The notes under the pieces: generated by a model
The model's input: the letters and a program-made list of their open reading frames with translations, nothing else
Database searches by the model: none
Told to the model about the DNA's origin: nothing
Assembly (NCBI GenBank): GCA_020633675.1
Contig: JACKDE010000003.1
Span: 459,633-523,632, forward strand
Reading direction: 5' to 3'
From: Deferribacteres bacterium
GTDB lineage: Bacteria > Zhuqueibacterota > Zhuqueibacteria > Zhuqueibacterales > Geothermadaptataceae
Length of the DNA: 64,000 nucleotides
In this document: positions 174 to 63,300 of the stretch, piece by piece
Position numbering within the stretch: the stretch's first letter is position 1
Layout of the letters: each line of letters begins with the position of its first letter
Position numbers and translations under genes: made by a program

Positions 174-415
174 TTTTTTGCAGGGGCGGCCCACCGGATC
201 GCCCCTGCAAATTCATCATCATTTTTCTCCAAACTGCCCCATCTTCCCATTCACTGCTCATATCGCGCTGCTTATACTCACCACATATATGGAATTTTTG
301 TTACGTACAACCTGTTCAACTTTTTGTATCCACAGGCATCGCAAGAGTGCTGCTTCAAGCGAAGCCACTAATTGGAATCCTTGTTCAAACAACCCAAATT
401 CATCGAGGAAACATA

Positions 416-1195
416 ATGATTGCATCGATCATCCAATTGAGCATTTTATTTTTTGTCAGTTTTTTTCACATGCTGCATTTTTCGGCAAATCTACAACCTG
501 CTGCAGCATATTCCGGCGGAAATGGCTTTGCTGTGATCGAGCTTTTTACTTCCGAAAGCTGATCGAGTTGCCCCCCTGCTGACCAGTTGGCCGGCGAGCT
601 TTACCGCAGCTATCGCGCACAAAATCAAAACGTTTTTGTGCTGGCGTTTCATGTCGATTACTGGAATCATCTGCACTGGAACGATCCGTACAGCAGTCGC
701 GCATACACCGACCGTCAGCGCGCCTATGCGCGCATTCTCGATATTCGGTCGCTGTATACGCCACAAATGGTCATCAATGGCCAGATCGAATTTACCGGCT
801 CCAACCGCTCGAAAGCACTCAAGGCGATCGATTTCTCCCTGGCGTCTTCGTCTGCCGCCAAAATCGAGCTTGAGGCACTTTCCCCGCAAGCCACACCCGC
901 TTTTCAGCTCAACTACCGCGTGACTGGTGCAGACACTGGCACGGACATCCATTTTGCGCTGGTTGAAGGGGGCTTGGTGCGCAAAATTGGTCGCGGCGAG
1001 AATGCGGGCAAAACGCTCCGCCATGAGCATGTTGTACGCGCTTTCCGCACCGAACATCTGGATGGCAACATGAGCGCGACCACAGCCGTCAATCTCCCGC
1101 GCGATCTGAAGTTCCGGAATGCGAAAATCGTTGTTTACACCCAACAGCGCGACAGCGGTCACATTACTGCTGCTGCAGAATTATCATTGCAGTGA
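416..1195 (+). CDS. DUF1223-family thioredoxin-fold protein with an in-frame TGA (560-562) at the first Cys of the CxxC motif: candidate selenoprotein (UxxC), alternatively a pseudogene
   Basis: ORFs 347..562 and 587..1195 share one frame. The joined reading is MIASIIQLSILFFVSFFHMLHFSA(signal-like)...NGFAVIELFTSES-TGA-SSCPPADQLAGELY...VLAFHVDYWNHLHWNDPY...YTPQMVINGQ, and the remembered family consensus is ELFTS.GCSSCPPAD. GAGGAA lies 6 nt upstream of ATG 416. The downstream piece alone has only a TTG start and would lack both the signal peptide and the redox motif. Confidence 0.6.
578..595 (+). promoter_or_regulatory. Candidate SECIS-like hairpin downstream of the in-frame UGA
   Basis: GCUGACC-AGUU-GGCCGGC folds as G-C, C-G, U.G, G-C, an A/C mismatch, C-G, C-G with a 4-nt G/U-containing loop. 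The stem starts 16 nt after the UGA. It is short and imperfect and was not evaluated with a SECIS model. Confidence 0.3.
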
Positions 1196-1349
1196 GCCAT
1201 CTTTGTGCAGTCTGCAGGCTCGAACCTGCTCGCTCCCCAATCGGCGCTTGGCTTTCGTTCTGCAAAAATTGCATTTCTGCAGCTTGCCTGCTATCATATC
1301 AAACTGTTTGCGCTAAACCGGCCATCCCACATCCTGCAAGGAATACAAA

Positions 1350-3845
1350 ATGAATCGCCCAAAATCCCATTTGGTACTCTGGTCTTTTTTGTTCGCCACT
1401 ATCTTTGCGTCGCCTGTCATTTTGCTGGCACAAATGCGAAGCAATCCATCGGCTGCCGAAATCCAGCTTGCTTTGCAGAAGATGCAAACAATGGGCAGCG
1501 TATTGTATATCGGCGCCCACCCGGATGATGAAAACAACGACTTGCTGAGCTATCTCGCACAAAGCGCACACTACCGCACTGCATACTTATCCGCCACCCG
1601 TGGCGATGGCGGGCAAAACCATATTGGCGATGAACTGGGCGCCAGTCTCGGGATTTTGCGTACCCAGGAATTGTTGGCTGCTCGACGTATCGATGGTGGC
1701 GAACAGTTTTTTTCACGCGCGCTCGATTTTGGTTATACGACTTCACCGGAGGCAACGCTGAAGAAATGGGGACACGAGGCGATTTTGGCGGACTTTGTCT
1801 GGGTTATCCGGCGTTTTCAGCCCGATATCATGATTGCCCGCTTCCCCACTACCGGCGAAGGTCGGCATGGCCACCACACCGCCTCGGCCATACTCGCCGG
1901 CGAGGCATTCCGTGCCGCTGCTGATCCACAGCGCTTCCCCGAGCAGCTCGAATATGTGCAGCCCTGGCAGGCCAAAAGGTTACTTTGGAATGCCTGGCCA
2001 GAGGTCATTTCTGCACGCGGTGGCGATCCTGCAAAATTGATCAAAATGGATATCGGCAGCTTCAATCCACTGCTTGGGCAGTCCTATACAGAAATCGGCG
2101 CAGCAGCGCGCAGCATGCACAAATGTCAGGGGATGGGCACGCTCAGTTCGCGCGGCCCTGAAATTGAATATTTTGAGGTTTTGAATGGCGAGTCGGCTTC
2201 GAATGCTTTGTTCGAAAATATCGACACCAGTTGGAAGCGCATCGATGGCGGCATTGCAGTCGGCTGGCAGCTGGCAGAAGCGCTGCATAGCTTCGAGCCT
2301 GCCGCGCCGCAGAAAACCCTGCCTGCGCTGGCAAAGGCCTATCGTGAGTTACAGAGTCTGCCAAAGAGCCAGTGGATCGATTATAAAATGCGCGAGCTTA
2401 AAACGCTGATCAAAGCCTGCGCAGGCTTGTGGATGCAGGCAATCGCAGACGACTATTCAGCCGCCCCCGGAGACTCGGTCCACATTACGACGACGCTGAT
2501 CAACCGCAGCGATGCGCAGATCGAATTAGCCGCACTCAAAATCAACGAATTTTCCTGGCAGCAAACCACCGATCTGCCGAACAACCAGCCATTCGCGCAG
2601 CGCATCGCTATAGCTCTGCCAGCCGATGCACCCATTTCGCAACCGTATTGGCTGCGTCAGCCAGCACTCCCTGGCCGGTATGTGGTCGAGGATCAACAAC
2701 TGATCGGCCGTCCGGAAAATGCGCCTGCGCTGGCGGTGCAGGCAAAAGTTCGCATCGGCGATGCTGAGCTGGAATTCGATTTGCCGGTAGAATATCGCTG
2801 GCGCGATCAATTCGATGGCGACCGCTATCGTCCATTTGAAATCGTGCCCAAAGCCACCGCCAATATCGAGCAGAGCGCTTACATTTTCGTGGATCAGCAA
2901 GCCAAGCCGGTGCGTGTGCGGATTAAAAGCGGCCGCAACAATATCACTGGAACACTCCACCTTGAATTGCCTGCAGGCTGGAATGCAAAACCGGCTTCAC
3001 ACATTTTTTCGCTCCAGCACAAAGAAGATGAGGCATTGCTGGCATTTTCCGTCCATCCTCCTGCGCAAGCCTCCGATGCTCCCATACGTGCCTTGCTGCA
3101 AATCGATGGGCAAACGCTCTCTCAGGAACTGGTTCGGATCGATTACAAGCACGTGCCCATGAATAGTTATTTTCCCCCAGCTTCCGCACGCGCAATCCGG
3201 CTCGACCTGAAAAAGGGCGATGAAAAAATAGGCTATGTGATGGGTGCGGGCGATCTCGTCCAGCAGAGTCTGGAGCAAATCGGCTATTCTGTAACATTGC
3301 TGTCGGATGATGATCTCGAAAAAAACGATTTGAGTGCGTTTCAAACCATCATCACCGGTGTGCGCGCTTATTCAACACGCCAGCGCTTGAAGCAACTACA
3401 CCAGCGCTTGCTGGATTTTGTTGCGGCCGGCGGTACGCTGGTGGTGCAGTACAATGGTAATCGCGGCAATGTGATCGACAATATCGGGCCATACCCGATG
3501 CGGCTGAGCTTCGAGCGCGTCGATGAAGAAGACGCCCCTATCACTTTTGTCGCGCCGGATCATCCACTGCTGAACCGGCCAAATCGCATCACCCAGCAAG
3601 ATTTCGAGGGTTGGGTGCATGATCGCGGTATTTACTTTGCCGACCAATATGACCCGCACTATCAAACCGTGCTTTCCAGCCACGATACCGGAAAAGCGCC
3701 TCTCGAAGGTGGCCTGTTGTATGCTAAATATGGCAAAGGCATTTTCATCTACACCGGCCTGTCCTTTTTCCGGCAATTGCCTGCCGGCGTACCCGGTGGT
3801 TACAGACTGCTGGTCAACCTGATCTCGGCGAAACAAGGAGAATAG
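1350..3845 (+). CDS. PIG-L (LmbE-like) family deacetylase with a long C-terminal extension, secreted
   Basis: N-terminal signal peptide (LFATIFASPVILLAQ). PIG-L signature GAHPDDENNDLLSYL...RGDGGQN plus GEGRHGHH. AAGGAA RBS before the ATG. 831 aa. Confidence 0.8.
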   Translation: MNRPKSHLVLWSFLFATIFASPVILLAQMRSNPSAAEIQLALQKMQTMGSVLYIGAHPDDENNDLLSYLAQSAHYRTAYLSATRGDGGQNHIGDELGASLGILRTQELLAARRIDGGEQFFSRALDFGYTTSPEATLKKWGHEAILADFVWVIRRFQPDIMIARFPTTGEGRHGHHTASAILAGEAFRAAADPQRFPEQLEYVQPWQAKRLLWNAWPEVISARGGDPAKLIKMDIGSFNPLLGQSYTEIGAAARSMHKCQGMGTLSSRGPEIEYFEVLNGESASNALFENIDTSWKRIDGGIAVGWQLAEALHSFEPAAPQKTLPALAKAYRELQSLPKSQWIDYKMRELKTLIKACAGLWMQAIADDYSAAPGDSVHITTTLINRSDAQIELAALKINEFSWQQTTDLPNNQPFAQRIAIALPADAPISQPYWLRQPALPGRYVVEDQQLIGRPENAPALAVQAKVRIGDAELEFDLPVEYRWRDQFDGDRYRPFEIVPKATANIEQSAYIFVDQQAKPVRVRIKSGRNNITGTLHLELPAGWNAKPASHIFSLQHKEDEALLAFSVHPPAQASDAPIRALLQIDGQTLSQELVRIDYKHVPMNSYFPPASARAIRLDLKKGDEKIGYVMGAGDLVQQSLEQIGYSVTLLSDDDLEKNDLSAFQTIITGVRAYSTRQRLKQLHQRLLDFVAAGGTLVVQYNGNRGNVIDNIGPYPMRLSFERVDEEDAPITFVAPDHPLLNRPNRITQQDFEGWVHDRGIYFADQYDPHYQTVLSSHDTGKAPLEGGLLYAKYGKGIFIYTGLSFFRQLPAGVPGGYRLLVNLISAKQGE

Positions 3846-6065: not shown

Positions 6066-7619
6066 CTATTTAAACTGTACCGGAATCCAGCGGGCTAAAG
6101 CTTCCCGTTCTGCGTCGCTGCCCTCGAAGGGCGGCATTTCCTCGCTCAGGGAATCCAGCCTGGTGATCAAATAGGATACCTCGGAGAAATCATATTTCCC
6201 CATGGAGACAAACATGGTATCACTCGCAGCATATTCATGGCAGTCGGCACAATTTGCTTCGAAAACGACTTCGCCGCTGATATCGATGTCCGTCACTTCA
6301 ACATCTTCAGGCGCGACCGGCGCCAGTGTGGTCAGGTATGCTGCCAGCGTCTCTCTCTCCTCATCTGTTCCCGCAAATGGCGGCATGACCGCGTTGAACA
6401 TATTTTCCAGAGATGAAATCCTGCGGGAAATTGCCGTTTGGCTCCATTTTTTCTCAACAAGCACCTTCCGGATGCCTCGATATCCGTCGATAGTATGGCA
6501 GCTTTGGCATTGAATCCTGAAAATCTCCATGCCTGCTGCCATTTGGTTCTCGCTCGTTATCTCCTTACTCTCGGCCCATTTGGCGACCGGAAGAAGTCCC
6601 TTTTGTTGTATGTTCTGAATCGACATGCCACCATCACCGGGAAACTGGTCTTTATAGATTGAATTTGCATACATATAATCATAGATGATATAAGGTTTGC
6701 GAATCGCTTCGCGGATAAATTCAAACGAACCCATGGTGCCAAAGGCCAGCAGGAAAATCAGCACACTCAAGGCAAAGGGCACTTTCTTTGGCTTGATTAA
6801 TGTGAGCAGGGAAAAGAGAAAAGTGAGAGCGGAGAAAATCAGGATAGAATTGGCATATTGAGTCGCGGTGGGCATTTTCCCTCTGGCGCTTTCCCACACA
6901 ACATCGGGAATGTTGCCGATGTACCACCAGGCAAAGATCGGAATGATGATGAAAGCGGGGATGATCCACTTCACACTCCATTTGACGATTTTACCCTTCA
7001 ACTCCAGGTCCTTCTGGAGCGTACCGGTGATGAGCGCGTAGACTCCGGCCAGTGCAAAGGCAAAAGTCGTTCTCAACAGCAGGGACGGGAAATAGGTCGG
7101 ATTAAAGAATCCCTGCCAGAAATTCTGCGTTTCCAGCCATTTCCCTGGCGTGAGCATGAAAGCTAAAATACCGTTGATCACCACCATGCTTAGATATGCT
7201 GCGATAAAGTAAATCCAGCCGAGCCAAAGGTGGGTTTTGCGATCCAGTTTATTCCAGCCGTACAGATAAAGCAAGGCAGCCGTGATTTCCAGGAAAAAGA
7301 AAATCCATTCAATTGCCCAACCCCAGACATAAGCGTGAATCAGAGCGCTGGTACCGGATGGATGGATCAGGCCAATGGTAAACCAGATGCCGACCCCTGA
7401 AATCGCGCCAAAAACCACTGTCACCAACACAAAAAACTTGGTGTGTCGCTTCAGCCAGTCCAACAGTGAAGCATCATCTTCCCGGTAGGCTTTTTTTTCG
7501 GTCAGCACCAGGAACAAGCCGCCTCCGATGGCGAAATGGGAGACAAACACATGGGTGATTGCTACAATAGCTATGAGCAATCCCGCACCAAAAGCAACAT
7601 CCCAAACCGGGTAATTCAT
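6066..7619 (-). CDS. Cytochrome bd-type quinol oxidase subunit I (CydA) homolog fused to a C-terminal di-heme cytochrome c domain
   Basis: The N-terminal ~340 aa are polytopic, with a CydA-like helix-1 His (AITHVFVSHFAIGGGLF) and a WGWAIEW block. The C-terminal ~170 aa are soluble and carry two CxxCH motifs (CQSCH, CADCH). GGGAGG RBS. Confidence 0.75.
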   Translation of the reverse strand: MNYPVWDVAFGAGLLIAIVAITHVFVSHFAIGGGLFLVLTEKKAYREDDASLLDWLKRHTKFFVLVTVVFGAISGVGIWFTIGLIHPSGTSALIHAYVWGWAIEWIFFFLEITAALLYLYGWNKLDRKTHLWLGWIYFIAAYLSMVVINGILAFMLTPGKWLETQNFWQGFFNPTYFPSLLLRTTFAFALAGVYALITGTLQKDLELKGKIVKWSVKWIIPAFIIIPIFAWWYIGNIPDVVWESARGKMPTATQYANSILIFSALTFLFSLLTLIKPKKVPFALSVLIFLLAFGTMGSFEFIREAIRKPYIIYDYMYANSIYKDQFPGDGGMSIQNIQQKGLLPVAKWAESKEITSENQMAAGMEIFRIQCQSCHTIDGYRGIRKVLVEKKWSQTAISRRISSLENMFNAVMPPFAGTDEERETLAAYLTTLAPVAPEDVEVTDIDISGEVVFEANCADCHEYAASDTMFVSMGKYDFSEVSYLITRLDSLSEEMPPFEGSDAEREALARWIPVQFK

Positions 7620-18161: not shown

Positions 18162-21100
18162 CTAACGCACCAATAGCATTTTGCGCGATGAAACGAGATT
18201 GCCGGCACGCAGCCGATAGAGATAAATCCCGCTCGGCACGGCTTGGCCGTCAGCACTGCGGCCATCCCATTTTACCAAATGCTCACCGGCTGATTGTCTG
18301 GTTTGCACCAACACCGCGACTTCCCTGCCCATGCGATCAAAAACTGTCAACTCAACTTCGCCTGCTTCGGAAAGTTGGTAACGGATCACGGTTTCCGGAT
18401 TGAACGGATTGGGATAGTTTTGCTGCAATTCAAAGGCTGTCGGCACCAGCGGAATGTCACCAACTGCATCGCCGGCTGCTTTCTCGGTGCCGATCACAAT
18501 TTTATACAGCCTTCCGTCCTTGGCAGCGTCGCTCGCAACACGAAACATGCCATTCTGAAGCGGCACAATCGCTTCCTTCTGCATGTCAAACACAAAAATG
18601 CCGAACTCATCCGGCAAGGCACCGATTTTCCGCAACGAAACAAGAATATCACTTTTCAACGAGTTCGCATCGATCCGCACATCCCAAGAGCTGCCTTCGG
18701 TATTGTTATCGCGAAAATTGCCGGCAAACTGATCGCCATTTTCAATGATCGAGATGCTTAGCTCATCCGAAATCGCCGGAGCATCGAAGAAATCGAAATC
18801 ATCCAATCCAGCTTTTGCGCCATCGCGGAAACCGATAAAATTCTGTGTGTCACGGAACGATTCTCCAGCAGCTTGAGCGCTAATTTGCAGGACAAACTCT
18901 CGCGAACTGATGTCCGTGAGGGCGCGTGAGGCCATTTTGCCCTGCCGGGTGGTGGCGATCTCTGCCTCGACCGGTGGAATCGTCAAAATCGTCGGTGTCA
19001 GGCTCAAATTGAAGACAAAGTAACCCTGCCATGGCTCCAGCACCGGCACATCGAATTGATATTCATCACCGTCGAAAAAGACTGGATTTTGTACTGCGCC
19101 ATCCGCTGAAACAGCGTCCCAGGATACCGGGAACGCGAAAGGACAGGCAATTTGGTTCCAGCCCGGGCGCAGGGTGATTTGGTACGGCGCCGCTGCGCTG
19201 ACTGAGGTCGCATTGTCAACGTCGAAATTGACAGCTTCGCGGGTGATCAGCCAAAATGCCGTTCCCGGCGTAAATTCCGCCTCGATCTCGGAGTATTCCC
19301 GGTAGCCCAATCGCTCCCATCGGAACAAGCGCCACGCTCGCGGGAAAGTCTCGTAGCGGCCCAAATCGTCGAAAAGTACGGAATCGATAGCGGATTGCGC
19401 CAAAGTCATCGGCACGGAAATCATTCGGAATTTTTCCGCTGTTGGTGTACTCGCTGCTGCGAGACGGCTGATACGGGCCGGTATAAAACGCGGATTGTTT
19501 TGTGGATCGATCGGTGGCAGAGTAATGGTTGTCTCGCCGTCGGTGATTTCAATGTAATACTGTACGCCGCGTTCGGTCACCGCCGACGGTGGGATGGTCA
19601 CGTTCAAAGAGCTGCCGCTGACATTGATCGGTTCACTTTCATAGGTACTTCGCCCGGCTGAGCGGTAGAAAAGCTGGCCGCTGACTGCTGTGAACGCCTG
19701 CGGTGGCATAACGTCGATGACCAAACTCTCACCAACCCGGGTTTGCTCCGGCTCGACCACTGCAATCTCGCCATATTCGGTTATTTTTTCTGTGATTGCC
19801 AGGAATTGTTTAGCGACAAAAGCGCCCAGTGTTTCTTTTCCACCGGATGGCCATTCGATGATCAGCGCACTGGCAGTCTGCGCCGTTCCGAGTCCGAAAA
19901 ATGCTTGCGCGCTATTTTGTCCACCGAATCCACCGCCAGTTTGCGCCGCGATTTCGCGGAATTGCGAAACAGGCTGCCCGTCTATACTCGTTTGCAAGGT
20001 GATCTTTGCACCAATCGCTGATCGGTTTGATTTCGACCCGATAAGCTGAATGCTGATCCAGTTGTTATTGTGACCGTTATTCCGGTAGAGAAAATTCCGC
20101 CCATTGTTGGCAATCGCAAAATCGAGATCGCCATCGTTGTCAAAATCAGCTGTGCTCACGCCATTCGCCAGCACCGATGCTGCTAAGTTGTTTGGCAATA
20201 TCTGTGGCTCAAAAGCGCCATTGCCCAGGTTCAGAAACAGCACATTGTTTCCGACTTCACTATCATTTCCCGCGACCACCAAATCGAGATCGCCATCGCC
20301 GTCAAAATCCCCCCATGCACTGCCGGTATTGAACGCGAACGTGCCGGTGAAGCCGCTATCGTTCATTTTGCTAAAACTGCCATCGCCATTATTCTGATAG
20401 AAAAAGTTGGACGCAGCATCGTGATTGGTCACGATCAAGTCGAGATCGCCATCGTTGTCAAAATCGCCCCAGCTGGCACCGCGTGACGATCCCCCTTCTG
20501 TCGAAATCATCACGTCGGCCAATTTTGTAAAACCGCCATCGCCGTTGTTGCGATAAAGTGTGTTATTGGCTCCAGCGCCATTGAGCACAAAAAGATCAAC
20601 ATCACCATCTCTGTCATAATCCGCCCAGGTGCATCCAAATGAGTCGGCACCATCCGTTACGACTTCGCCGGTGGTGATTTTTGCAAAACGTATAGAATCA
20701 GCAGAGCTGGTATTCCGATACAGGAAATTACCGCCTTGCTGATTTGCCACGAACAAATCGAGCATGCCATCGTGATCGAAATCTGCCCAACTGGCCGCCA
20801 CGGAAAAGCCTCCGTCTGTCACGATCGCGCCATACAGGACTCTCGTAAAACTGCCATCGCCGTTGTTGATGTACAAAGCATTATCCGCAGCGCTGAAGCT
20901 GGCAATCAAGAAATCGCTATTGGATACATCCGCATTGGCAATAAACACATCGGCATCGCCATCGTTGTCGATATCGCCCCAGGAGGCCGCAAAGGATTGC
21001 ATCACATCGCTGGTAAGGGCTCCCGCATCTGCTAAGCTGAAATTTCCTGCACCATCGTTCTCAAAAAGCTGATTCGGCACATCAGCATCGCCGGTCGTGA

Positions 21101-24100
21101 AAAACAGATCGAAATCACCGTCAAGGTCGAAATCGACCCAACTGCTGCTGGTGGAATTGTACGATTCTGCAACAACCGGCCCTTCAACGATTTGGGTAAA
21201 CATGTCGAATGGCTGCACGCCGGTGCCGTGCAATTGCACTCTATCCGGGCTTGATGGCGCGTTGCTGGTGACGGTCAGATCGGCGATGCGCTGCCCCGAT
21301 GCTGACGGCTGAAACGCGATGGTCAGGTTTGCGCTCTCTCCGGGCTGCAGCGAGATGGTGCTGCCCGTATCCTGTAAAATAAAATCCGTGCTATTGGCGC
21401 CTGCGATTGCAATAGCCGCAACAGAAAGTGTGGTGCCACCGTCGTTTGTCAGCGTAACTGTGCGCAGGCTTTCTTTGCCAAGCCCCATCTCGCCAAATTC
21501 GACGGTCTGCGGTGTCAACGTCAGGGCGGGTTCGACCGTCATGCCTCTGCCTTGCAATTGCACAGTGTCGGGGCTTGAGGGTGCATTGCTCACGATCACC
21601 AGTTCAGCGACACGCTCACCTGCCGCTAATGGCTGGAACGCAACCTGCAAATTGGCGCTTTCGCCAGGTTGCAGCGTGATGGGGCTGCTGGTATCTTGCA
21701 AAACGAAATCTGTGCTATGGGTGCCAGCAATGACAATGGAACTGACAACCGCCGCAGCTTCGCCGACGTTTGCGAGATTGATGGTGCGCAAGACCGAATC
21801 CCCAAGCTGTGTTGCGCCAAAGTCGATCGCTTGCGGCGTCAGCATCAAGGCAGGTTCGACCATCATGCCTCTGCCTTGCAATTGCACGGTGTCCGGGCTT
21901 GATGGTGCATTGCTGACAATCACCAGTCCTGCGATGCGCTCACCTGCCACTAATGGCTGGAACGCAACCTGCAAATTGGCGCTTTCGCCTGCTTGCAGCG
22001 TGATGGGGCTGCTGGTATCTTGCAAAACGAAATCTGTGCTATGGGTACCAGCAATTGCGATGGAACTGACAACGGCCGCAGCTTCGCCAACATTTGCGAG
22101 TTTGATGGTGCGCAAGACCGAATCCCCAAGCTGTGTTGCGCCAAAATCGACCGTTTGTGGCGTCAGCATCAAGGCAGGTTCAACGACCACGCCTGTGCCA
22201 CGCAATTGCACCAAATCCGGGCTCGTAGGCGCGTTGCTGGTGACGGTCAACTCAGACACACGCTCGCCTGCGGCTGATGGCTGGAACGCAACCTGTAAAT
22301 TAGAGCTTTCGCCAGGTTGCAGCGTGATTGGGCTGCTGGTATCTTGCAAAACGAAATCTGTATTGTGCGCGCCAGTGACCGCAACCGTAGTTACCGAAAC
22401 CGGAATGCTGCCAGTGTTTGCTAAAGCAATGGTACGCAAAACTCGTTCTCCGAGCTGTGTTGCGCCAAAATCGACCGTTTGTGGCGTCAATGTCAGGTTT
22501 GGCGCTACCGTCACAAATGAGTAATCGTTCGCGCCAATTTCGGTCTGGAAACGCAGCGCATCATTGATTTGCAAGCCGTTTACCGTGGTAAAATCACCGT
22601 TGAGTGAGCCAAATCCAATCAATGCAAATCGATTGTCTGGCGCGGGCACAAAGCCATTGAGCAGCAGAATATCCAACCTGCCAGCCAAATTGGTAACACC
22701 ACTGATGGACACACGATCAAAACTGCTTTCACTGCCGATTTCCATTTCGAGCAAACCGGACTCGCTCTGCGTGTAGTCACCACGTACTTCCAACAAGCCG
22801 ATATCCGCGCCGGGCTGAAATTGCCCTCCCATCACCAGATTTGCCGCAATCAGTCCTGCACCGCGCAATGCACCGCCGGATATTTCAATGCTGCCAGCGG
22901 ATTCGATGCTGCCGCCAGCGAGAATCGTCGCACCAGAATTCTGCTTCATTCCGCTCGGGATGCGCAGAATGCCATTTTGCACGTCGATCTGACCACTGTT
23001 TTGCAAATCGAGATCGAGCGCGGCTTGTGCGCCATTTGCAGAGAAAGTGATCTTGCCGCGGTTTACCAGACTGGTAGTGCTGCCAGGATCAGGATTGCCA
23101 TTCCATTGCAGCGTGCCTTCGATCTGGAACACACCGTTCGCAGCGTTCAGCAGGCTTGCACCACTACCGCTTTGTAGAGAGAAAGTATCGGCAACACGCA
23201 CAATTCCACTATTTTTGAGCGCAAAACCATTCTGCCAAAACTTGTCCGCCGTGGTTTCTAAATCAACCGCGCCACTGTTCTCGAGCGTATCTTGGGCGGA
23301 AATGGCGCCACCCTGCCAGGTGATCGTCCCCAGATTTTCAAGCCTGCCAGCGAAAGAAAGTACACTCTGTACCGTGACAAGCAGCTCAGCTTGTGGTTGA
23401 ATTTTGGCAGCGCCGCCGATGGCAAGCGTCTGGTTGTTGGTCGACAAAATTTGCCTTCCGGTCGCTGGCGCATCAAGCGCGCCCAGTTCGAGGTGCTGCA
23501 CTGTGGCCGGAATATCCAATGTGACGGTGTAGTCTCCAGCTTGCGTTATGAAAACACGATCGAGTGCTGTGGGCACTGTATTTGTGCTCCAGTTGCCCGG
23601 CTCACTCCAATTTCCGGATAGCGCCGCGTTCCAGAAAACATCCTGCGCGCCAAGTGGCAGTGCATTCACAAAAACACCTTGACCATCTATGCCGGCAAAA
23701 ATCTGGTTTTGGCTATCGATCGTGAGCGACAACACGGCCGCGGCAGGCAATCCATCACTGAATAACTGCCATGAACGGCCGTTGTCTGCGGAAACAAACA
23801 CGCCCTGATTTTCTGCCAGCGCCAACAGCACACCGTTTTTTGCAGTCACCATTTTGTTGATGGTCGTGCGCTGCGCAATCGCTCCAATGCCAGACCAACT
23901 TTGGCCGTCATCAAGTGACGAGAATAGCGCCCCGCTTGCGCTGACCGCCAGCAGTTCGCCCCCCAACCTCTGAGCCATGGCCGTGATGCGTGTGCCTTCC
24001 ACGCCATTGGTGACCGGTAGCCAGGATTGGCCGCTATCCGAGGAGCGCAGCATGCGGGCAGCGCTGGTCGTCACAAAAAGGATGTCCTTTGCGCTCACAA

Positions 24101-25535
24101 ACAGCTCGACAATCAACTCATCCGCCAAACCAATGTTCACCAAGCTCCAACTCGAACCGTTATCCTGAGAGAGGTAAAGGTTATCACCGGCCGCCCATAA
24201 TTCGCCTTTGGTGTTCTGGGCAAGCTTTTGTATTGCGGGCGCGTTTTCCAGGCCCTTGGTGAACTGTACCCAGGTGTCGCCATCATTGCTTGAACGAAAA
24301 ATTCCGGCCCCAAACGCGTCCACCGCCACTAAAACGGCACCCTGACTCTGAGGATCAAAGAGCATATCGTTGACAGGACCGATATCGAGACCGCGGGTTA
24401 ACCAGGTCCACGTACCACCGCTATCGCGCGAACGAAAAATGCCGTTGCCCCGGGTGCCGGCCAAAATACTGCCCCGGTCTGTAGTCAATAGCGCACTGAC
24501 CCTGGTATTGGTCAGCCCGTTATTGGCGACTTCCCAGCTTTTACCACCGTCAGTCGAGCGATAAACACCGAGACTGGCAGTCGCAGCTGCGCTTGCGCCA
24601 CCTGTACCGACAAAAAGCTCACCATTGATTCCTTTGGCAATCGCTAAAATCGAATTGCTGGTCAAGCCCTTATCTGTCAGCACCCAGTTCGTGCCAAAAT
24701 CGGTTGACTGGTACAGGCCGCCGCCATCTGTGCCGGCATAAATTTCACCTTGTACTCCGACGGCAAGAGCCTGAACGACCGGCACAGCCAGGCCAGTGTT
24801 CGCAGGCACCCAATTCAAGCCATTGTCTCGCGAGAGGTAAATGCCTTCAGCCGTTCCCGCAAAAATAAAATTGTCGCCAGCAAACGTGATGGACGTTGCT
24901 CCGAATCCGCTATCGATTTGCTCCCACTTGCCTCCCTGGTCGGCACTGCGAAACAAGCCTGCTTGCGGAATACCGGCCAGCAGCTCCAAAGTGAACGGAT
25001 TGACAGCAAGCGCTTCAACAGCGATGTCGTTCGGCAAGCCAGCAGTAGCTGGTCCCCACGAATCACCGTTATCTGTCGAGCGCAGCACACCGTTGCCGGT
25101 ACCGAGATAAATATTCTGAGATTCCGGTTCAATTGCTATGGCAAGAACGGAAAATTGTGCACCAATCAGTCCGGTATTGACCGGTTGCCAACTCTGGCCG
25201 GCATCGGATGATCGGAAAACACCGCCGCCATTTGTGCCGGCAAAAATCTGATCTTCGATATTGACCGCCAAAGCGCGGATATCCAGACTCGCCAAACCGC
25301 TGGCCGCAGCTTGCCAATTCGTGCCAGCATCTTCCGATCGAAAAATGCCCGCCCCTTGAGTGCCGGCAAACAGCTGTCCCTTGGCATTGCTGACAATCGT
25401 CTGAACCGTACCACCATATGGCCCTTGCGTCGGTTTCCATGGATTTTGCGCCATAACGGTGCTATTTAGCAACAAGCAAATTAAGCTCATAAATGAAAGA
25501 GCTGCAAATTTTTGAAATTTTAACTGGTTCATCAT
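18162..25535 (-). CDS. Giant (2457 aa) secreted multi-propeller surface protein, T9SS cargo
   Basis: Signal peptide. About 13 Asp-box/BNR-like S.D.G..W motifs in the first ~620 aa. A G/S/N-rich beta-helix-like segment. Four tandem ~108-aa Ig-like repeats (LTPQTVDFGATQLG...). Seven FG-GAP/VCBS-type FD.DGD.DL motifs followed by an ASPIC/UnbV-like block. A ~600-aa unassigned region. The last 90 aa (18162-18434) are a T9SS type-A CTD. Confidence 0.85.
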   Translation of the reverse strand: MMNQLKFQKFAALSFMSLICLLLNSTVMAQNPWKPTQGPYGGTVQTIVSNAKGQLFAGTQGAGIFRSEDAGTNWQAAASGLASLDIRALAVNIEDQIFAGTNGGGVFRSSDAGQSWQPVNTGLIGAQFSVLAIAIEPESQNIYLGTGNGVLRSTDNGDSWGPATAGLPNDIAVEALAVNPFTLELLAGIPQAGLFRSADQGGKWEQIDSGFGATSITFAGDNFIFAGTAEGIYLSRDNGLNWVPANTGLAVPVVQALAVGVQGEIYAGTDGGGLYQSTDFGTNWVLTDKGLTSNSILAIAKGINGELFVGTGGASAAATASLGVYRSTDGGKSWEVANNGLTNTRVSALLTTDRGSILAGTRGNGIFRSRDSGGTWTWLTRGLDIGPVNDMLFDPQSQGAVLVAVDAFGAGIFRSSNDGDTWVQFTKGLENAPAIQKLAQNTKGELWAAGDNLYLSQDNGSSWSLVNIGLADELIVELFVSAKDILFVTTSAARMLRSSDSGQSWLPVTNGVEGTRITAMAQRLGGELLAVSASGALFSSLDDGQSWSGIGAIAQRTTINKMVTAKNGVLLALAENQGVFVSADNGRSWQLFSDGLPAAAVLSLTIDSQNQIFAGIDGQGVFVNALPLGAQDVFWNAALSGNWSEPGNWSTNTVPTALDRVFITQAGDYTVTLDIPATVQHLELGALDAPATGRQILSTNNQTLAIGGAAKIQPQAELLVTVQSVLSFAGRLENLGTITWQGGAISAQDTLENSGAVDLETTADKFWQNGFALKNSGIVRVADTFSLQSGSGASLLNAANGVFQIEGTLQWNGNPDPGSTTSLVNRGKITFSANGAQAALDLDLQNSGQIDVQNGILRIPSGMKQNSGATILAGGSIESAGSIEISGGALRGAGLIAANLVMGGQFQPGADIGLLEVRGDYTQSESGLLEMEIGSESSFDRVSISGVTNLAGRLDILLLNGFVPAPDNRFALIGFGSLNGDFTTVNGLQINDALRFQTEIGANDYSFVTVAPNLTLTPQTVDFGATQLGERVLRTIALANTGSIPVSVTTVAVTGAHNTDFVLQDTSSPITLQPGESSNLQVAFQPSAAGERVSELTVTSNAPTSPDLVQLRGTGVVVEPALMLTPQTVDFGATQLGDSVLRTIKLANVGEAAAVVSSIAIAGTHSTDFVLQDTSSPITLQAGESANLQVAFQPLVAGERIAGLVIVSNAPSSPDTVQLQGRGMMVEPALMLTPQAIDFGATQLGDSVLRTINLANVGEAAAVVSSIVIAGTHSTDFVLQDTSSPITLQPGESANLQVAFQPLAAGERVAELVIVSNAPSSPDTVQLQGRGMTVEPALTLTPQTVEFGEMGLGKESLRTVTLTNDGGTTLSVAAIAIAGANSTDFILQDTGSTISLQPGESANLTIAFQPSASGQRIADLTVTSNAPSSPDRVQLHGTGVQPFDMFTQIVEGPVVAESYNSTSSSWVDFDLDGDFDLFFTTGDADVPNQLFENDGAGNFSLADAGALTSDVMQSFAASWGDIDNDGDADVFIANADVSNSDFLIASFSAADNALYINNGDGSFTRVLYGAIVTDGGFSVAASWADFDHDGMLDLFVANQQGGNFLYRNTSSADSIRFAKITTGEVVTDGADSFGCTWADYDRDGDVDLFVLNGAGANNTLYRNNGDGGFTKLADVMISTEGGSSRGASWGDFDNDGDLDLIVTNHDAASNFFYQNNGDGSFSKMNDSGFTGTFAFNTGSAWGDFDGDGDLDLVVAGNDSEVGNNVLFLNLGNGAFEPQILPNNLAASVLANGVSTADFDNDGDLDFAIANNGRNFLYRNNGHNNNWISIQLIGSKSNRSAIGAKITLQTSIDGQPVSQFREIAAQTGGGFGGQNSAQAFFGLGTAQTASALIIEWPSGGKETLGAFVAKQFLAITEKITEYGEIAVVEPEQTRVGESLVIDVMPPQAFTAVSGQLFYRSAGRSTYESEPINVSGSSLNVTIPPSAVTERGVQYYIEITDGETTITLPPIDPQNNPRFIPARISRLAAASTPTAEKFRMISVPMTLAQSAIDSVLFDDLGRYETFPRAWRLFRWERLGYREYSEIEAEFTPGTAFWLITREAVNFDVDNATSVSAAAPYQITLRPGWNQIACPFAFPVSWDAVSADGAVQNPVFFDGDEYQFDVPVLEPWQGYFVFNLSLTPTILTIPPVEAEIATTRQGKMASRALTDISSREFVLQISAQAAGESFRDTQNFIGFRDGAKAGLDDFDFFDAPAISDELSISIIENGDQFAGNFRDNNTEGSSWDVRIDANSLKSDILVSLRKIGALPDEFGIFVFDMQKEAIVPLQNGMFRVASDAAKDGRLYKIVIGTEKAAGDAVGDIPLVPTAFELQQNYPNPFNPETVIRYQLSEAGEVELTVFDRMGREVAVLVQTRQSAGEHLVKWDGRSADGQAVPSGIYLYRLRAGNLVSSRKMLLVR
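21215..22510. repeat. Four in-frame tandem repeats of 324 bp (108 aa) inside the giant gene
   Basis: The anchor string cacctgcc(g/a)ctaatggctggaacgcaacctgcaaattggcgctttcgcc recurs at ~21618 and ~21942 (offset 324). The two central copies are near-identical by eye and the outer copies are more diverged. Off-frame shadow ORFs 21626..21820 and 21950..22144 are copies of each other. Confidence 0.8.
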
Positions 25536-58911: not shown

Positions 58912-60078
58912 CTATCGTTTCCAGCGCCGGCGAATGTAAGCAGGCGACTCGAGATCATCATCGTTGTAGAGGCTGTCTTCGATTTCTGAGACGGTTTCCA
59001 TATGTCCGTTGCCATTGCCATTGCGACGCTGGTAAGTCGGCACATCCAAATCGCTCAGTTCATAGTCGATAATGCGCATGGTCGAGGCTTGTTTGCGAGT
59101 CATGCCATAGCCGTTTTTGTTGAAGCCGGTGGCGATGACCGTGACACGGATTTCCTCTTCCATCTGCGGATCGACAACCGCACCAAAAATCAGGTTAGCA
59201 TCATTGCCTGCCGCATCCGAGATCACGCTGGTGGCATCGTTCACTTCATGCAGCGAAAGCGATTCGCCACCGGTGATGTTGACCAAAACACCTTGGGCAC
59301 CGGCAATCGAAATGTCTTCCAATAGCGGGCTGGCTATGGCTTTCTGTGCTGCCTCGATCGAACGATCATCGCCCGAGGCCACCGCAGAGCCCATCAGAGC
59401 ATCACCCATTTCGCGCATGACCGTTTTCACATCGGCAAAATCAAGATTGATCAGGCCGGGGATGCTAATCAAGTCGGAAATGCCTTTTGTTGCGTGCAAC
59501 AGCACTTCATCCGCCGTGCGAAACGCTGCGGTGAGCGGCGTGCCTTTCGTCACCACAGAGAGCAAGCGCTGATTTGGGATGACGATCAGCGTGTCGACTT
59601 GTTTTTTGAGCTCAAGCAAACCTTCTTCCGCACGCTGCGAGCGTTTATGGCCCTCGAACATGAATGGCTTCGTGACAATGGCGACTGTCAGCGCGCCGAG
59701 GTCTTTTGCAATTTCAGCAACGACCGGTGCAGCACCGGTGCCGGTGCCGCCGCCCATTCCGGCAGTGATAAACACCATGTCGCTATCCTCGAGCGATTCG
59801 ATTACGGAATCGCGGTCTTCTTCAATCGACTTCCGACCAATTTCAGGATCTGCGCCTGCTCCTAATCCGCGCGTACAGGCTCTGCCGATCTGCAAGCGTG
59901 TTGAAGTTTTGCATGCTTCCAAAGCCTGCAAATCCGTGTTGATGCTGACAAAACCGACGCCTGCCAGGTTGGCTTCGATCATACGATTTACGGCATTGCA
60001 GCCGCCGCCACCTACGCCAACAACTTTCATCCTGGCGGTCGGTGTGGGATTTTCGTCAAAATTGAAACGCAAATTCAT
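58912..60078 (-). CDS. ftsZ: Cell division protein FtsZ
   Basis: GVGGGGCNAVNRM, the GMGGGTGTGAAPVVA tubulin signature, and a C-terminal DLESPAYIRRR peptide. The start is placed at MNLRFNF (60078), preceded by AAGGAG; the track ORF extends to 60168. Confidence 0.95.
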   Translation of the reverse strand: MNLRFNFDENPTPTARMKVVGVGGGGCNAVNRMIEANLAGVGFVSINTDLQALEACKTSTRLQIGRACTRGLGAGADPEIGRKSIEEDRDSVIESLEDSDMVFITAGMGGGTGTGAAPVVAEIAKDLGALTVAIVTKPFMFEGHKRSQRAEEGLLELKKQVDTLIVIPNQRLLSVVTKGTPLTAAFRTADEVLLHATKGISDLISIPGLINLDFADVKTVMREMGDALMGSAVASGDDRSIEAAQKAIASPLLEDISIAGAQGVLVNITGGESLSLHEVNDATSVISDAAGNDANLIFGAVVDPQMEEEIRVTVIATGFNKNGYGMTRKQASTMRIIDYELSDLDVPTYQRRNGNGNGHMETVSEIEDSLYNDDDLESPAYIRRRWKR

Positions 60079-60145
60079 GGCTGACTCCTTTTTTGTGATA
60101 CTGATTTTGGCTGAATACGAAAAATATCCTTTGCGCTGGACTACG

Positions 60146-61387
60146 CTATATACCCTTGCTACCGACAAACCAGCGCTTCATTCGTTCCACAATTTTCTCA
60201 AAAACATGTGACTCGCTCGAGCTCAGCGGACCATCGATCATCTCGCTGTTCTCTTTACCATACATAATCAAACCGACGCCGGTCGAATGCAATGGCAGAT
60301 TGATGTCGTCACTGACGCTCTTGATACCCGACGGTACACCCAGCTTCACCGGCATTTCAAAAATTTCTTCGGCCAGCTCGACGGTACCTGGCAGCATGGC
60401 CGCGCCGCCGGTTAAAACAGCGCCCGCCGTCATCAAATGTACGTAATCCGATTTCTTGATTTCGTTGTGCGCCAGGGTCAAAATTTCTTCCATGCGCGGT
60501 TGAATGATATCTACCAGCAGCGATTTGGCCACTTTCCGCGGTGGTCGTCCACCAACGCCCGGCACTTCGACCAGTTTATCTTCGTCCTTTTCGTATTTAA
60601 CCGCCGAGCCAAAATTCACTTTAATCGCTTCTGCACTCTCAATTGGTGTGCGCAAGCCGTGCGCGATGTCGTTGGTGACGTTACGGCCGCCGAGGCTGAC
60701 GATCGCCGTATGCCGGATGCAGCCTTCATAAAACATGGCAATGTCCGTGGTGCCTCCGCCGATGTCGAGCACGCAGACACCAAGGTCTTTTTCGTCTGGC
60801 GTGAGCACAGAATAACTGCTTGCCAATGGCTCGAGCACCAGGTCCATCACTGACATATGCGCACCTTCGATGCTGCGCCAGATATTTTGCGCTGCCGTCA
60901 CTGCGCAGGTGACAATATGGACTTCTGCTTCGAGTCGAACGCCGGACATGCCAACCGGATCGGTAATGCTGCGCTGATCATCGACAATAAACTCTTGCGG
61001 CAAAATATGGATAATTTCACGATCAAACGGCAGCGATACAGCCTTGGCTGCGTCGATCACACGCCGTTTATCTTCCATACTGATGATGTGATTTTCGCCA
61101 GCGACAGCCACCACGCCGCGGCCATTCACGCTGCGAATATGATCCCCTGCAATGCCTGCGTAGACGGCTTCAATCTCAACACCGGCCATGCGTTCGGCTT
61201 CTTCGCGCGCCTTGATAATAGCCTGAATGGTTTTTTCGAGATTGATCACCACGCCGCGACGCAAACCATCCGATGGTGCTGTGCCGACGCCGATGATTTT
61301 CAGCATCGAATTTTCATCGAGTTCAGCGATGAGTGCGCAAATTTTTGTGGTGCCGATGTCCAGGGCACAGATATACTCGTTTGTCAT
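60146..61387 (-). CDS. ftsA: Cell division protein FtsA
   Basis: ALDIGTTKICALIAE and DIGGGTTDIAMF actin-fold motifs. Located between ftsQ and ftsZ. Confidence 0.95.
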   Translation of the reverse strand: MTNEYICALDIGTTKICALIAELDENSMLKIIGVGTAPSDGLRRGVVINLEKTIQAIIKAREEAERMAGVEIEAVYAGIAGDHIRSVNGRGVVAVAGENHIISMEDKRRVIDAAKAVSLPFDREIIHILPQEFIVDDQRSITDPVGMSGVRLEAEVHIVTCAVTAAQNIWRSIEGAHMSVMDLVLEPLASSYSVLTPDEKDLGVCVLDIGGGTTDIAMFYEGCIRHTAIVSLGGRNVTNDIAHGLRTPIESAEAIKVNFGSAVKYEKDEDKLVEVPGVGGRPPRKVAKSLLVDIIQPRMEEILTLAHNEIKKSDYVHLMTAGAVLTGGAAMLPGTVELAEEIFEMPVKLGVPSGIKSVSDDINLPLHSTGVGLIMYGKENSEMIDGPLSSSESHVFEKIVERMKRWFVGSKGI

Positions 61388-61399
61388 ACCCCCACCTCC

Positions 61400-62149
61400 T
61401 TATGTGTGATTTATGGTTCCTTGTTTCTTCTTGGCGATCACCTGATCGTTAAATCGCAAGTCGAGGTATAAAATTTGATCGAACTGGCCTTCACTGGCGA
61501 AGTGTTCCCAAGCCACTTTGAGCTTTTTGCTTTTGTTCAACAGACGATCTTTTCCGAAATAGACCGGAATGTTTTTTTCGACCATGGTCGCTCTCACACC
61601 GTAGGTCGCATTCATGGTGACTTCAGAGATCAAGCTATATATAATGGGCTCGGCTTCCTGCAATTCACCAATAAATTCTGCCAGAACAACGAGCTTGCTG
61701 TTGTCGACTTTTTCACCAGGCAAATGCTCTTTGATGTGCATGCCGGTAATCACCGGAAAGTCCAAGCCGATTTCCGGACGAAAACGCGGCAGCAACACGC
61801 CTTCACGATCGATGCCCCACAGGCCATTGCTGATCAAAATGGCCACAGGTTGACGTTCCCGAATGTCAATGCGGATATTCGATGGAAACATGCGGGAAAC
61901 TTCAACCTGCCGTACCTGCGGCAGCTCAGCCAGTTTCGCCTGAATGCGGTTGATATCCGTATCCCAGATGCTTTCGGCAGAATCGACTTTTGCCGCCGCC
62001 AGCACATCTTCCGTTTCCAGCAACCGATTGCCGCTCACAACAACCTTTTTTACTGAAAAAGCATGGTTATCCTGTATCCACACGCTCAGGTGCAGAAAAA
62101 CCAGGATAATGCTCGTCGAAAAGAACACATATTTGCCTGCCACTCTCAT
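61400..62149 (-). CDS. ftsQ: Cell division protein FtsQ (POTRA-containing)
   Basis: N-terminal TM, then the POTRA-like VKKVVVSGNRLLETEDVLAA. Position between murG and ftsA. 4-nt overlap with murG. Confidence 0.8.
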   Translation of the reverse strand: MRVAGKYVFFSTSIILVFLHLSVWIQDNHAFSVKKVVVSGNRLLETEDVLAAAKVDSAESIWDTDINRIQAKLAELPQVRQVEVSRMFPSNIRIDIRERQPVAILISNGLWGIDREGVLLPRFRPEIGLDFPVITGMHIKEHLPGEKVDNSKLVVLAEFIGELQEAEPIIYSLISEVTMNATYGVRATMVEKNIPVYFGKDRLLNKSKKLKVAWEHFASEGQFDQILYLDLRFNDQVIAKKKQGTINHT

Positions 62150-63300
62150 GGTGATCCCTCCTTGTCTATCAGCTTCAGACAGTCCCTTGCAATCAGCTCG
62201 GCCGCATTGTGCATCGACAGTTTTTTTGCCGCTGCCGACATGCTAACCAGCCGCTCCTCATCTGTAACGAGTTGTCGAATGTGTTCAAAAATTAAATCTG
62301 CTGTCAACTCCCTTTCATGAACCAAAACGCCGCCACCAGCATGTACAACAGCCTGGGCATTGGCAGTTTGATGATCTGCGGTCGCGAACGGAAATGGCAC
62401 ATAAATCGCCGGAATACCGCAGGTCACCAGCTCCGAAATAGTTGAAGCGCCAGCCCTGCATACCGCTAAATCCGCAATCGCGTAGGCCTTGCCCATCTCT
62501 TCGATATAGGGAACGATCCGAATATTCTCCGCTGCGGTGTCGGCCGCTTGTGAGATATGTTCATACCATGTCGTGCCGACAGCCCAAATCACCTGCACAT
62601 CGGGCAGAGCCTGCAAGCCCGGCAGCATCGACAGGATAGTCTCATTCAGTTTCTTCGCGCCCTGGCTACCGCCAAATACCAGCACCGTTTTTTTGCTTTT
62701 GTCCAGATTAAAAAACGAGTAGCCATCGTTTTTATTGGTGTTGAACAAGGAACCGCGTATCGGATTGCCGTATACAAACACATTTTTCTGCGCGGTAAAA
62801 TAGCGCTTTGACGCCTCAAATGTCAAAAAAACAGCGTCAACCGCATTGCCCAGTTTACGATTGACCAGCCCGGGATAATTGTTCTGTTCCTGCACTGCCC
62901 GGGGAATTTTCAGCATCCCGGCAGCCAGCAATGCCGGCCCTGACGCGAATCCACCTGTACCGATCACTATTTGTGGCCGGAAACGCCGGAAAAAGCTGAT
63001 GCATTTCAATACGCTATAAGCCAATCGGAACGGCACCAGCACGTTTTGCCATGTCAATTTTCGCAACAAACCGCGAATCGGTAAGACAAGCAACTCATAG
63101 CCCTGCTCCGGCACCACCCGCGCTTCCAGTCCACGATCCGTGCCAACGAAAACGACGTGTACCGATGGCAGCATCTCACGGAATTTATCTGCAAGCGCCA
63201 GCCCGGGATACAGATGGCCTCCAGTGCCACCGCCGGCAACGACAATACGGATGTCAGCGGTTAATTTTGATTTTTCTGCCTGTTGTAGACTTTTTGCCAT
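62146..63300 (-). CDS. murG: UDP-N-acetylglucosamine--N-acetylmuramyl-(pentapeptide) pyrophosphoryl-undecaprenol GlcNAc transferase
   Basis: VVAGGGTGGHLYPGLALA, and C-terminal RAGASTISEL and HQT.NA motifs. Confidence 0.9.
   Translation of the reverse strand: MAKSLQQAEKSKLTADIRIVVAGGGTGGHLYPGLALADKFREMLPSVHVVFVGTDRGLEARVVPEQGYELLVLPIRGLLRKLTWQNVLVPFRLAYSVLKCISFFRRFRPQIVIGTGGFASGPALLAAGMLKIPRAVQEQNNYPGLVNRKLGNAVDAVFLTFEASKRYFTAQKNVFVYGNPIRGSLFNTNKNDGYSFFNLDKSKKTVLVFGGSQGAKKLNETILSMLPGLQALPDVQVIWAVGTTWYEHISQAADTAAENIRIVPYIEEMGKAYAIADLAVCRAGASTISELVTCGIPAIYVPFPFATADHQTANAQAVVHAGGGVLVHERELTADLIFEHIRQLVTDEERLVSMSAAAKKLSMHNAAELIARDCLKLIDKEGSP

Follow-up and report, generated by a model that had tools for sequence, protein, structure and literature searches.

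The question raised by this locus is whether an in-frame TGA within a gene for a DUF1223 protein ends translation or is decoded as selenocysteine (Sec). The gene is contained in a stretch of 64,000 nucleotides of bacterial DNA that is referred to below as the window; coordinates are those of this stretch unless a related locus is named. The initial annotation of the window had proposed a UxxC selenoprotein and had named a nonsense mutation and a sequencing error as competing explanations. Its proposal has since gained support from the occurrence of TGA at the same codon in relatives, from a covarying hairpin, and from the enrichment of this hairpin over the Cys-encoding forms of the gene. It is thus considered likely, with a probability of roughly 0.85, that the gene at 416-1195 is a genuine Sec-decoded DUF1223 selenoprotein of the UxxC type.

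A DUF1223 Gene Interrupted at Its Active Site

On the plus strand, a single frame extends from an ATG at 416-418 through MIASIIQLSILFFVSFFHMLHFSANLQPAAAYSGGNGFAVIELFTSES to the TGA at 560-562, and from there through SSCPPADQLAGELYRSY to its closing TGA at 1193-1195. The first of these two codons, directly preceded by GNGFAVIELFTSES, is the sole interruption of the frame. Read through, the complete coding sequence (416..1195) comprises 259 codons with the proposed Sec (U) as codon 49. A Shine-Dalgarno-like GAGGAA, read off the sequence at 405..410 (plus strand), lies 5 nt 5' of the ATG, and the first codons (416..487) specify a hydrophobic, signal-peptide-like N-terminus, MIASIIQLSILFFVSFFHMLHFSA, with a putative cleavage site past residue 24. 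The only possible start of the downstream piece is the TTG at 587. The single frame, the ATG, the GAGGAA and the TTG-only downstream start that had been described in the initial annotation were all verified in the sequence.

With the TGA read as Cys, the product matched the Pfam family DUF1223 (PF06764) with 181.6 bits (E 2.4e-53; cut-off, 30.7), and the match covers model positions 1-202 of 202. Alignment of 50 full-length homologs placed the TGA on the invariant column C49 of E42 L43 F44 S46 C49 S51 C52 P53, which confirmed the earlier assignment of this codon to the first Cys of the DUF1223 CxxC motif. The active-site stretch of the window protein is ELFTSES-U-SSCPPAD, where the family pattern is ELFTS(E/Q)GCSSCPPAD, and the UGA (560..562) hence occupies the first position of a UxxC motif, U-S-S-C (Sec49, Cys52; 560..571), aligned with the invariant Cys. 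The window protein also matched PDB entry 2AXO with an E-value of 7.2e-22, and the segment of 2AXO aligned to the motif stretch is ELFTSQGCASCPPAD.

The interruption is reflected in the public records. The ORF that begins with TTG 587 (587..1195, plus strand; P0001 in databases) is recorded as a 202-residue "DUF1223 domain-containing protein", and the MAGs in which it is found are labelled "Deferribacteres bacterium" or "candidate division KSB1 bacterium"; the upstream piece was called as a separate 48-aa ORF in the assemblies examined (L154-L163). All public copies consist of a truncated protein of 185-206 residues together with the 48-residue ORF, a systematic misannotation that is ascribed to the UGA, the TTG ORF being an annotation artefact of the same cause. 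Taken at face value, the 48- and 202-residue ORFs given by the gene callers would represent a split gene, encoding a 48-residue secreted peptide and a separate 202-residue protein initiated at TTG 587. Such a downstream protein would have lost its export signal as well as strand 1 and the first residue of the active site, elements that the fold requires, and the split would have to fall exactly on the Cys codon in all of the TGA-containing genes described below (33/33). Nor are the downstream starts conserved. The closest database homologs, P0002 (64% identity) and P0003 (59%), share this point of truncation, with the start of P0002 at the TTG position and that of P0003 17 residues later. A split gene is consequently regarded as highly implausible.

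An error in sequencing or assembly at 560-562, one of the two alternatives raised in the initial annotation, has its prior alone in its favour. Ten independent assemblies, retrieved from NCBI, ENA and Logan and derived from different samples, agree on the TGA at this codon; over 416-1195, nine match the window exactly, and the tenth differs by a single other base. These assemblies contradict the notion of an error and exclude it to within a negligible residual probability.

Conservation of the TGA Codon

The DNA of the two closest orthologs, L001 and L002, was found to contain an in-frame TGA at the equivalent codon, in the context ELFTSES-TGA-SSCPPADQLAGE. The codons surrounding the TGA differ synonymously among these closest orthologs (ACT/ACC, TCG/AGC, AGT/AGC, TGC/TGT, CCC/CCA, and GCT/GCC). 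The gene for an aminotransferase precedes L001 and one for an 830-residue PIG-L protein follows it, as in the window; among the TGA-form loci, a search for a shared gene neighbourhood returned clade-level synteny only, without a functional clue.

A scan of genomes with the pattern TTYACNWSNSARNNN-TGA-NNNNNNTGYCCNCCNGC, taking one genome per species, provided 31 matches. Thirty of these are DUF1223 genes with TGA at this position and with a frame that is open and conserved on both sides; the 31st, from a Clostridiales MAG, proved to be a chance match and not a DUF1223 TGA form. The carriers are labelled as Pyrinomonadaceae and Thermoanaerobaculia (Acidobacteriota), Planctomycetota, Polyangia, SAR324, Latescibacterota, and Poribacteria, and they further include a "Rickettsiales" MAG and several unclassified MAGs. 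With the window gene, L001 and L002, the TGA forms total 33 genes, each with an intact frame. As a control set of Cys forms, the same pattern with TGH was run against metagenome contigs, and at least 120 loci (L034-L153) were obtained. All of the TGH matches listed (at least 120) are Cys forms, 86 with TGC and 34 with TGT, indicating that Sec forms are a small minority. The search of DUF1223 orthologs for Cys/TGA pairs, a check suggested when the locus was first annotated, accordingly had a positive outcome, with TGA in 32 other genes and TGC or TGT elsewhere.

In a neighbour-joining tree, the TGA forms are distributed over six clades, each without any Cys form. The clade of the window gene comprises L001, L002, and the loci from SAR324 (L004), Poribacteria (L033) and Latescibacterota (L022, L023). 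Identity inside the TGA-only clades extends down to about 38-50%, and the persistence of TGA across such divergent clades argues that it is not a nonsense mutation in a dying gene. A pseudogene of this kind, in which a TGY-to-TGA mutation in a Cys-form DUF1223 has left two decaying remnants, would be in keeping with the annotation in databases of the truncated 202-aa piece only. Set against this are the 33 genes, spread over several phyla, that have TGA at this codon and no other stop or frameshift, the retention of TGA to the identities given above, and the conservation of the protein upstream of the TGA despite synonymous changes in the DNA; the hairpin evidence that also bears on this alternative is presented below.

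A locus in a Pyrinomonadaceae MAG (L025) contains tandem Sec/Cys DUF1223 paralogs. The Sec form, with its TGA at 2237-2239 of that locus (minus strand), adjoins a Cys paralog at ~746-1543 (minus strand; LFTAQGCPGCPAAE).

A Conserved Hairpin Downstream of the UGA

According to the consensus model of bacterial SECIS elements (bSECISearch), the loop comprises 3-9 nt with a G in position 1 or 2 that is usually followed by G or U (PMC13188914), and the element is situated 16-37 nt from the UGA with a minimum free energy (MFE) of -7.5 kcal/mol or lower (PMC13188914, Fig. 2A legend). Folding of the 63 nt from each TGA revealed a hairpin that fits this model, with a stem of 6-7 bp in a near-fixed register, a distance of 22 nt from the UGA to the loop, and a loop of 3-6 nt containing GU. 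The loops are AGUU, GGU(U), GGUC, or CGUGC, and the register moves by 1-3 nt between clades. Examples include GCCGAGG-AGUU-CCUCGGC, GCCGAUC-AGUU-GAUCGGC, and GCUGAGA-AGUU-UCUCAGC, together with GGCUGAC-CGUGC-GUUAGCC and CCGACAC-GGUC-GUGUCGG. The hairpin is encoded by the codons for Ala-Asp/Glu-x-x-x-Gly/Ala, just past CPP. The stems of the family typically have energies of -10 to -14 kcal/mol.

The hairpin distinguishes the TGA forms from the Cys forms. Over nt 15-42 past the codon, the mean MFE was -10.5 kcal/mol for the 33 TGA forms vs. -5.3 kcal/mol for the 120 Cys forms (Mann-Whitney p 4e-13, a value that, as with all p-values for the hairpin, overstates independence because the 33 TGA sequences are mutually related). 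Relative to shuffled sequences, the corresponding z-scores were -2.06 and -0.08, respectively, and the G+C contents of this segment were 0.65 and 0.63. Stems of 6 bp or more, capped by a GU-containing loop of 3-7 nt, were present in 23/33 TGA forms vs. 3/120 Cys forms. Folding energies calculated over nt 3-63 did not separate the Sec from the Cys forms (p 0.2), and the claim is therefore limited to the core hairpin and does not extend to a lower helix reaching down from the UGA.

Covariation was observed in two classes of sequence. Within class A (21 sequences in the register of the window gene), 92.9% of the cells of the helix are paired and three of the seven pairs are compensatory, involving CG, GC, and UA types; none of 500 shuffles was as good, and slid registers reached at most 51% pairing. 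For class B (nine sequences with the register shifted by one), 98.4% are paired and compensatory changes affect two of the seven pairs. Pairing has been kept in at least five different stem sequences. A conserved downstream hairpin, which the initial annotation had asked for in related genomes, is thus present, with its position kept, compensatory changes in its stem, and enrichment in TGA over Cys forms. A search of Rfam returned nothing relevant for the whole window at gathering thresholds or for 540-660 at E <= 10.

Two of the TGA forms, L003 (2943-2996, plus strand; 'Rickettsiales' MAG) and L031 (364-417, minus strand; Polyangiaceae MAG), are without the hairpin in its standard register and contain short GGA-loop stems only; their SECIS, if any, may be sited elsewhere.

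Part of the stem also occurs among the Cys forms. At least five of the outer pairs (GCCGA...UCGGC) were found in 12 of the 120 (~10%), at nt 18-35 past the Cys codon; the inner pairs and the AGUU loop are restricted to the TGA forms in this comparison of 33 TGA with 120 Cys sequences. The latent outer stem is explained by the self-complementarity of the codons for Ala-Asp and x-Gly (GCC GAY ... NUC GGC).

The Hairpin of the Window Gene

The SECIS-like hairpin of the window gene folds at 578-595 (plus strand) from GCUGACC (578-584), the loop AGUU (585-588), and GGCCGGC (589-595), spanning codons Ala55-Gly60. The window copy agrees with the SECIS model on four counts: its 4-nt loop has G as the second base and U as the third, the loop lies 22 nt from the UGA, and the energy just reaches the limit. 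A single internal mismatch, A582 x C591, interrupts the stem. Its energy of -7.5 kcal/mol corresponds to z = -0.07 against dinucleotide shuffles, i.e., to chance level. The hairpin had previously been described as modest; it exists at 578-595 as reported, and its strength is better termed marginal given this z-score. L001 and L002 have similar hairpins, for which a 5-bp register with the loop CCAG can also be drawn, and the energies of the three copies range from -7.5 to -7.8 kcal/mol, with z from -0.07 to +0.73. The core codons GAC CAG TTG GCC are identical in all three genes, and codon identity over the hairpin was not significantly raised among these orthologs (6/12 vs. 43/103; p 0.76). The clade formed by the window gene with L001 and L002 has the weakest SECIS candidate of the family.

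The significance of the window hairpin thus derives from the comparison with relatives only, since by itself it is no better than shuffled sequence. This is a second point in favour of the pseudogene, and it is countered by the covarying hairpin that is specific to the TGA forms. The 33 intact TGA genes and this hairpin contradict the nonsense mutation that had been named as an alternative at the outset, and a pseudogene is judged very unlikely.

Decoding of the UGA

TGA is a normal stop codon in the source organism. The 43 genes of the window end in TAA (18), TAG (14) or TGA (11), and the TGA at 560-562 is the only internal one among their 19,390 codons. Together with its recurrence at the equivalent codon of 32 other genes, this places it well outside chance expectation. 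A separate scan of the window for TGA-split ORFs that might represent a second selenoprotein returned shadow-frame or intergenic cases only.

These figures bear on the possibility that the UGA is recoded to a residue other than Sec, whether to Cys through a Sec-like tRNA(Cys)/SelB-type system, by near-cognate read-through, or by genome-wide reassignment. SelB-dependent recoding to Cys has been proposed in some bacteria. Genome-wide reassignment is excluded because TGA ends 11 of the 43 genes and no other internal TGA exists in the 19,390 codons. With respect to the remaining routes, the identity of an inserted residue is not readable from sequence alone, and genes for Sec machinery were not found in the ~84 kb around the gene. 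On the other side, the hairpin matches the SelB-type SECIS model, the TGA occupies the place in a redox motif where Sec and Cys classically alternate, the phylum label is consistent with lineages that have selA, selB and selD, and nothing specific favours a decoding such as that to Cys by a SelB-type route. Recoding to a residue other than Sec is hence thought unlikely.

The search for Sec machinery covered the 64-kb window and 10 kb on each side (~84 kb of a genome of several Mb), and no tRNA-Sec, selA, selB, or selD was detected in it. With ARAGORN, neither the window nor any of 32 related loci gave a tRNA. SelA, SelB and SelD were missing from Pfam scans of 40 ORFs of the window and from the precomputed Pfam matches for the 10 kb on each side, and Sec machinery genes were likewise not seen near the DUF1223 gene in the 32 related loci. 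Elsewhere, selA, selB, and selD are carried by KSB1 MAGs of three of four clades (PMC9012183), a paper in whose supplements the source MAG does not appear, and Sec-containing group 4 hydrogenases have been reported from KSB1, Acidobacteriota, and Poribacteria (PMC13582414). With the phylum label taken from NCBI names, this literature would appear to back the presence of Sec machinery at the phylum level only.

Sec decoding of the UGA at 560-562 is proposed to occur as follows. As the ribosome meets the UGA, a complex of SelB-GTP-Sec-tRNA(Sec) would bind the hairpin at 578-595, and Sec would be inserted without termination. The second TGA, at 1193-1195 and without a hairpin element, would then terminate translation.

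Structure, Export, and Proposed Function

As a structural proxy for the window protein, the AlphaFold model of P0004, its closest full-length Cys homolog, was used (mean pLDDT, 89.9). The model comprises a strand at 42-48, the CSSC turn, a helix at 55-68, and a C-terminal beta-sandwich at 151-258. The best match to it with Foldseek was 2AXO (E 5.4e-14; TM 0.63/0.72), the structure of Atu2684, which has been classed as thioredoxin-like (PMC3091736). The N-terminal domain of P0004 is similar to thioredoxins, and its C-terminal domain to the Omp28 domain and the Ig-like domains of glycosidases. In this model and in the 2AXO match, the redox motif is positioned at the N-terminus of helix 1 of the thioredoxin fold. 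The fold and the placement of the CxxC motif together indicate that the UGA corresponds to the exposed, attacking position of the redox centre.

Hydrophobic or lipoprotein-like N-termini were found upstream of the TGA in 32/32 of the other TGA forms, and based on these sequences, the products of the TGA forms of DUF1223 are likely exported. The product of 416-1195 is thus envisaged as one exported two-domain protein, consisting of a thioredoxin fold and a beta-sandwich with the motif U49-S-S-C52, the export of which would be directed by the N-terminal signal sequence. It would function as a thiol/selenol-disulfide oxidoreductase in which Sec49 serves as the attacking nucleophile and is joined to Cys52 in a selenylsulfide. 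Selection for Sec as the first residue of the CxxC motif speaks for a catalytic role of this residue, as a redox nucleophile outside the cytoplasm.

One DUF1223 protein, P0020 (403 aa), is a fusion with methionine sulfoxide reductase A (PF01625). Its domain composition hints at a role for DUF1223 in the supply of electrons to, or as the redox partner of, an exported methionine sulfoxide reductase.

Other Features of the Window

The largest ORF of the window by far, with 2457 residues, is at 18162-25535 (minus strand). A 517-residue ORF at 6066-7619 (minus strand) combines an N-terminal region like subunit I of cytochrome bd oxidase with C-terminal cytochrome c domains (cbb3-type subunit III), an unusual fusion of domains. 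A large exopolysaccharide cluster followed by division and cell-wall genes occupies ~36259-58094 and 58912-63300 (both minus strand). The former contains glycosyltransferases, polysaccharide deacetylases, Wzz, Poly_export, Bac_transf, PEGA, and TPR proteins; past it, ftsZ-ftsA-ftsQ-murG form the end of a division/cell-wall cluster that runs on beyond the end of the window.

Novelty and Significance

The 2026 table of prokaryotic selenoprotein families, known or predicted (PMC13188914), does not list DUF1223, and the supplementary files of the GOS, ISME 2016 and deep-Sep papers do not mention it. None of the selenoprotein papers in the searchable literature, subscription journals and the BSepDB supplements aside, contains the terms DUF1223, PF06764, or COG5429. 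A scan against NCBIfam at E <= 1 provided matches to Omp28 and an MJ0307-type thioredoxin only, both sub-threshold, and none to a selenoprotein model. The Sec form of DUF1223 thus probably represents a selenoprotein family absent from searchable published lists, with a prior description elsewhere being possible.

A broader and more tentative reading, for which the odds are somewhat unfavourable at present, is that DUF1223 constitutes a widespread, exported and unlisted selenoprotein family of soil, sediment, and marine lineages (Acidobacteriota, Planctomycetota, Polyangia, SAR324, Latescibacterota, Poribacteria, and KSB1, as labelled), in which Cys may have been converted to Sec several times independently. 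As part of this same tentative reading, a SECIS could arise from the latent 5-bp stem with just 2-3 additional inner pairs and a GU loop.

If the UGA is decoded as Sec, the prokaryotic selenoproteome grows by a family not listed in the comprehensive table of 2026, the systematic misannotation of public copies is corrected, and the thousands of proteins of this uncharacterised family gain a hint of their function. Paired with the 120 Cys sequences, the 33 TGA sequences also offer a clean illustration from nature of the emergence of a SECIS within coding sequence under constraint. The UxxC thioredoxin-fold kind of selenoprotein is already well known, and the addition of DUF1223 would be useful to specialists while leaving concepts unchanged.

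Comparison With Known Systems

A further thioredoxin-like UxxC protein that, like the window protein, is uncharacterised and was recognised only through TGA/Cys pairs is GOS_C (NF045500), known from ocean metagenomes (PMC2398784). Identity of the two was considered and rejected, as the window protein gave no match to NF045500 at E <= 1 and the supplementary sequences of GOS do not contain ELFTS.

The closest structural relative is Atu2684 (AGR_C_4864) of Agrobacterium tumefaciens, determined by structural genomics as 2AXO. It shares with the window protein the DUF1223 family, the two-domain fold, and the stretch ELFTSxGCxSCPPAD, but it has Cys in place of the residue specified by UGA.

Among established selenoproteins, thioredoxin (PF00085), glutaredoxin (PF00462), DsbA-like form 1 (PF01323), and the thiol:disulfide interchange protein (PF13098) are known in Sec-containing forms (PMC13188914, Table 1), and in the thioredoxin, glutaredoxin and DsbA-like proteins it is the first Cys of CxxC, at the start of helix 1, that is replaced by Sec (PMC13188914). 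The window protein resembles these UxxC proteins in having a thioredoxin fold and, as proposed, Sec in place of the first Cys. Their genes and that of the window likewise have mostly Cys homologs and a SECIS hairpin, or a candidate for one, within the coding region just past the UGA. Unlike the listed UxxC selenoproteins, the window protein belongs to PF06764, and it possesses an additional C-terminal beta-sandwich and a putative N-terminal export signal.
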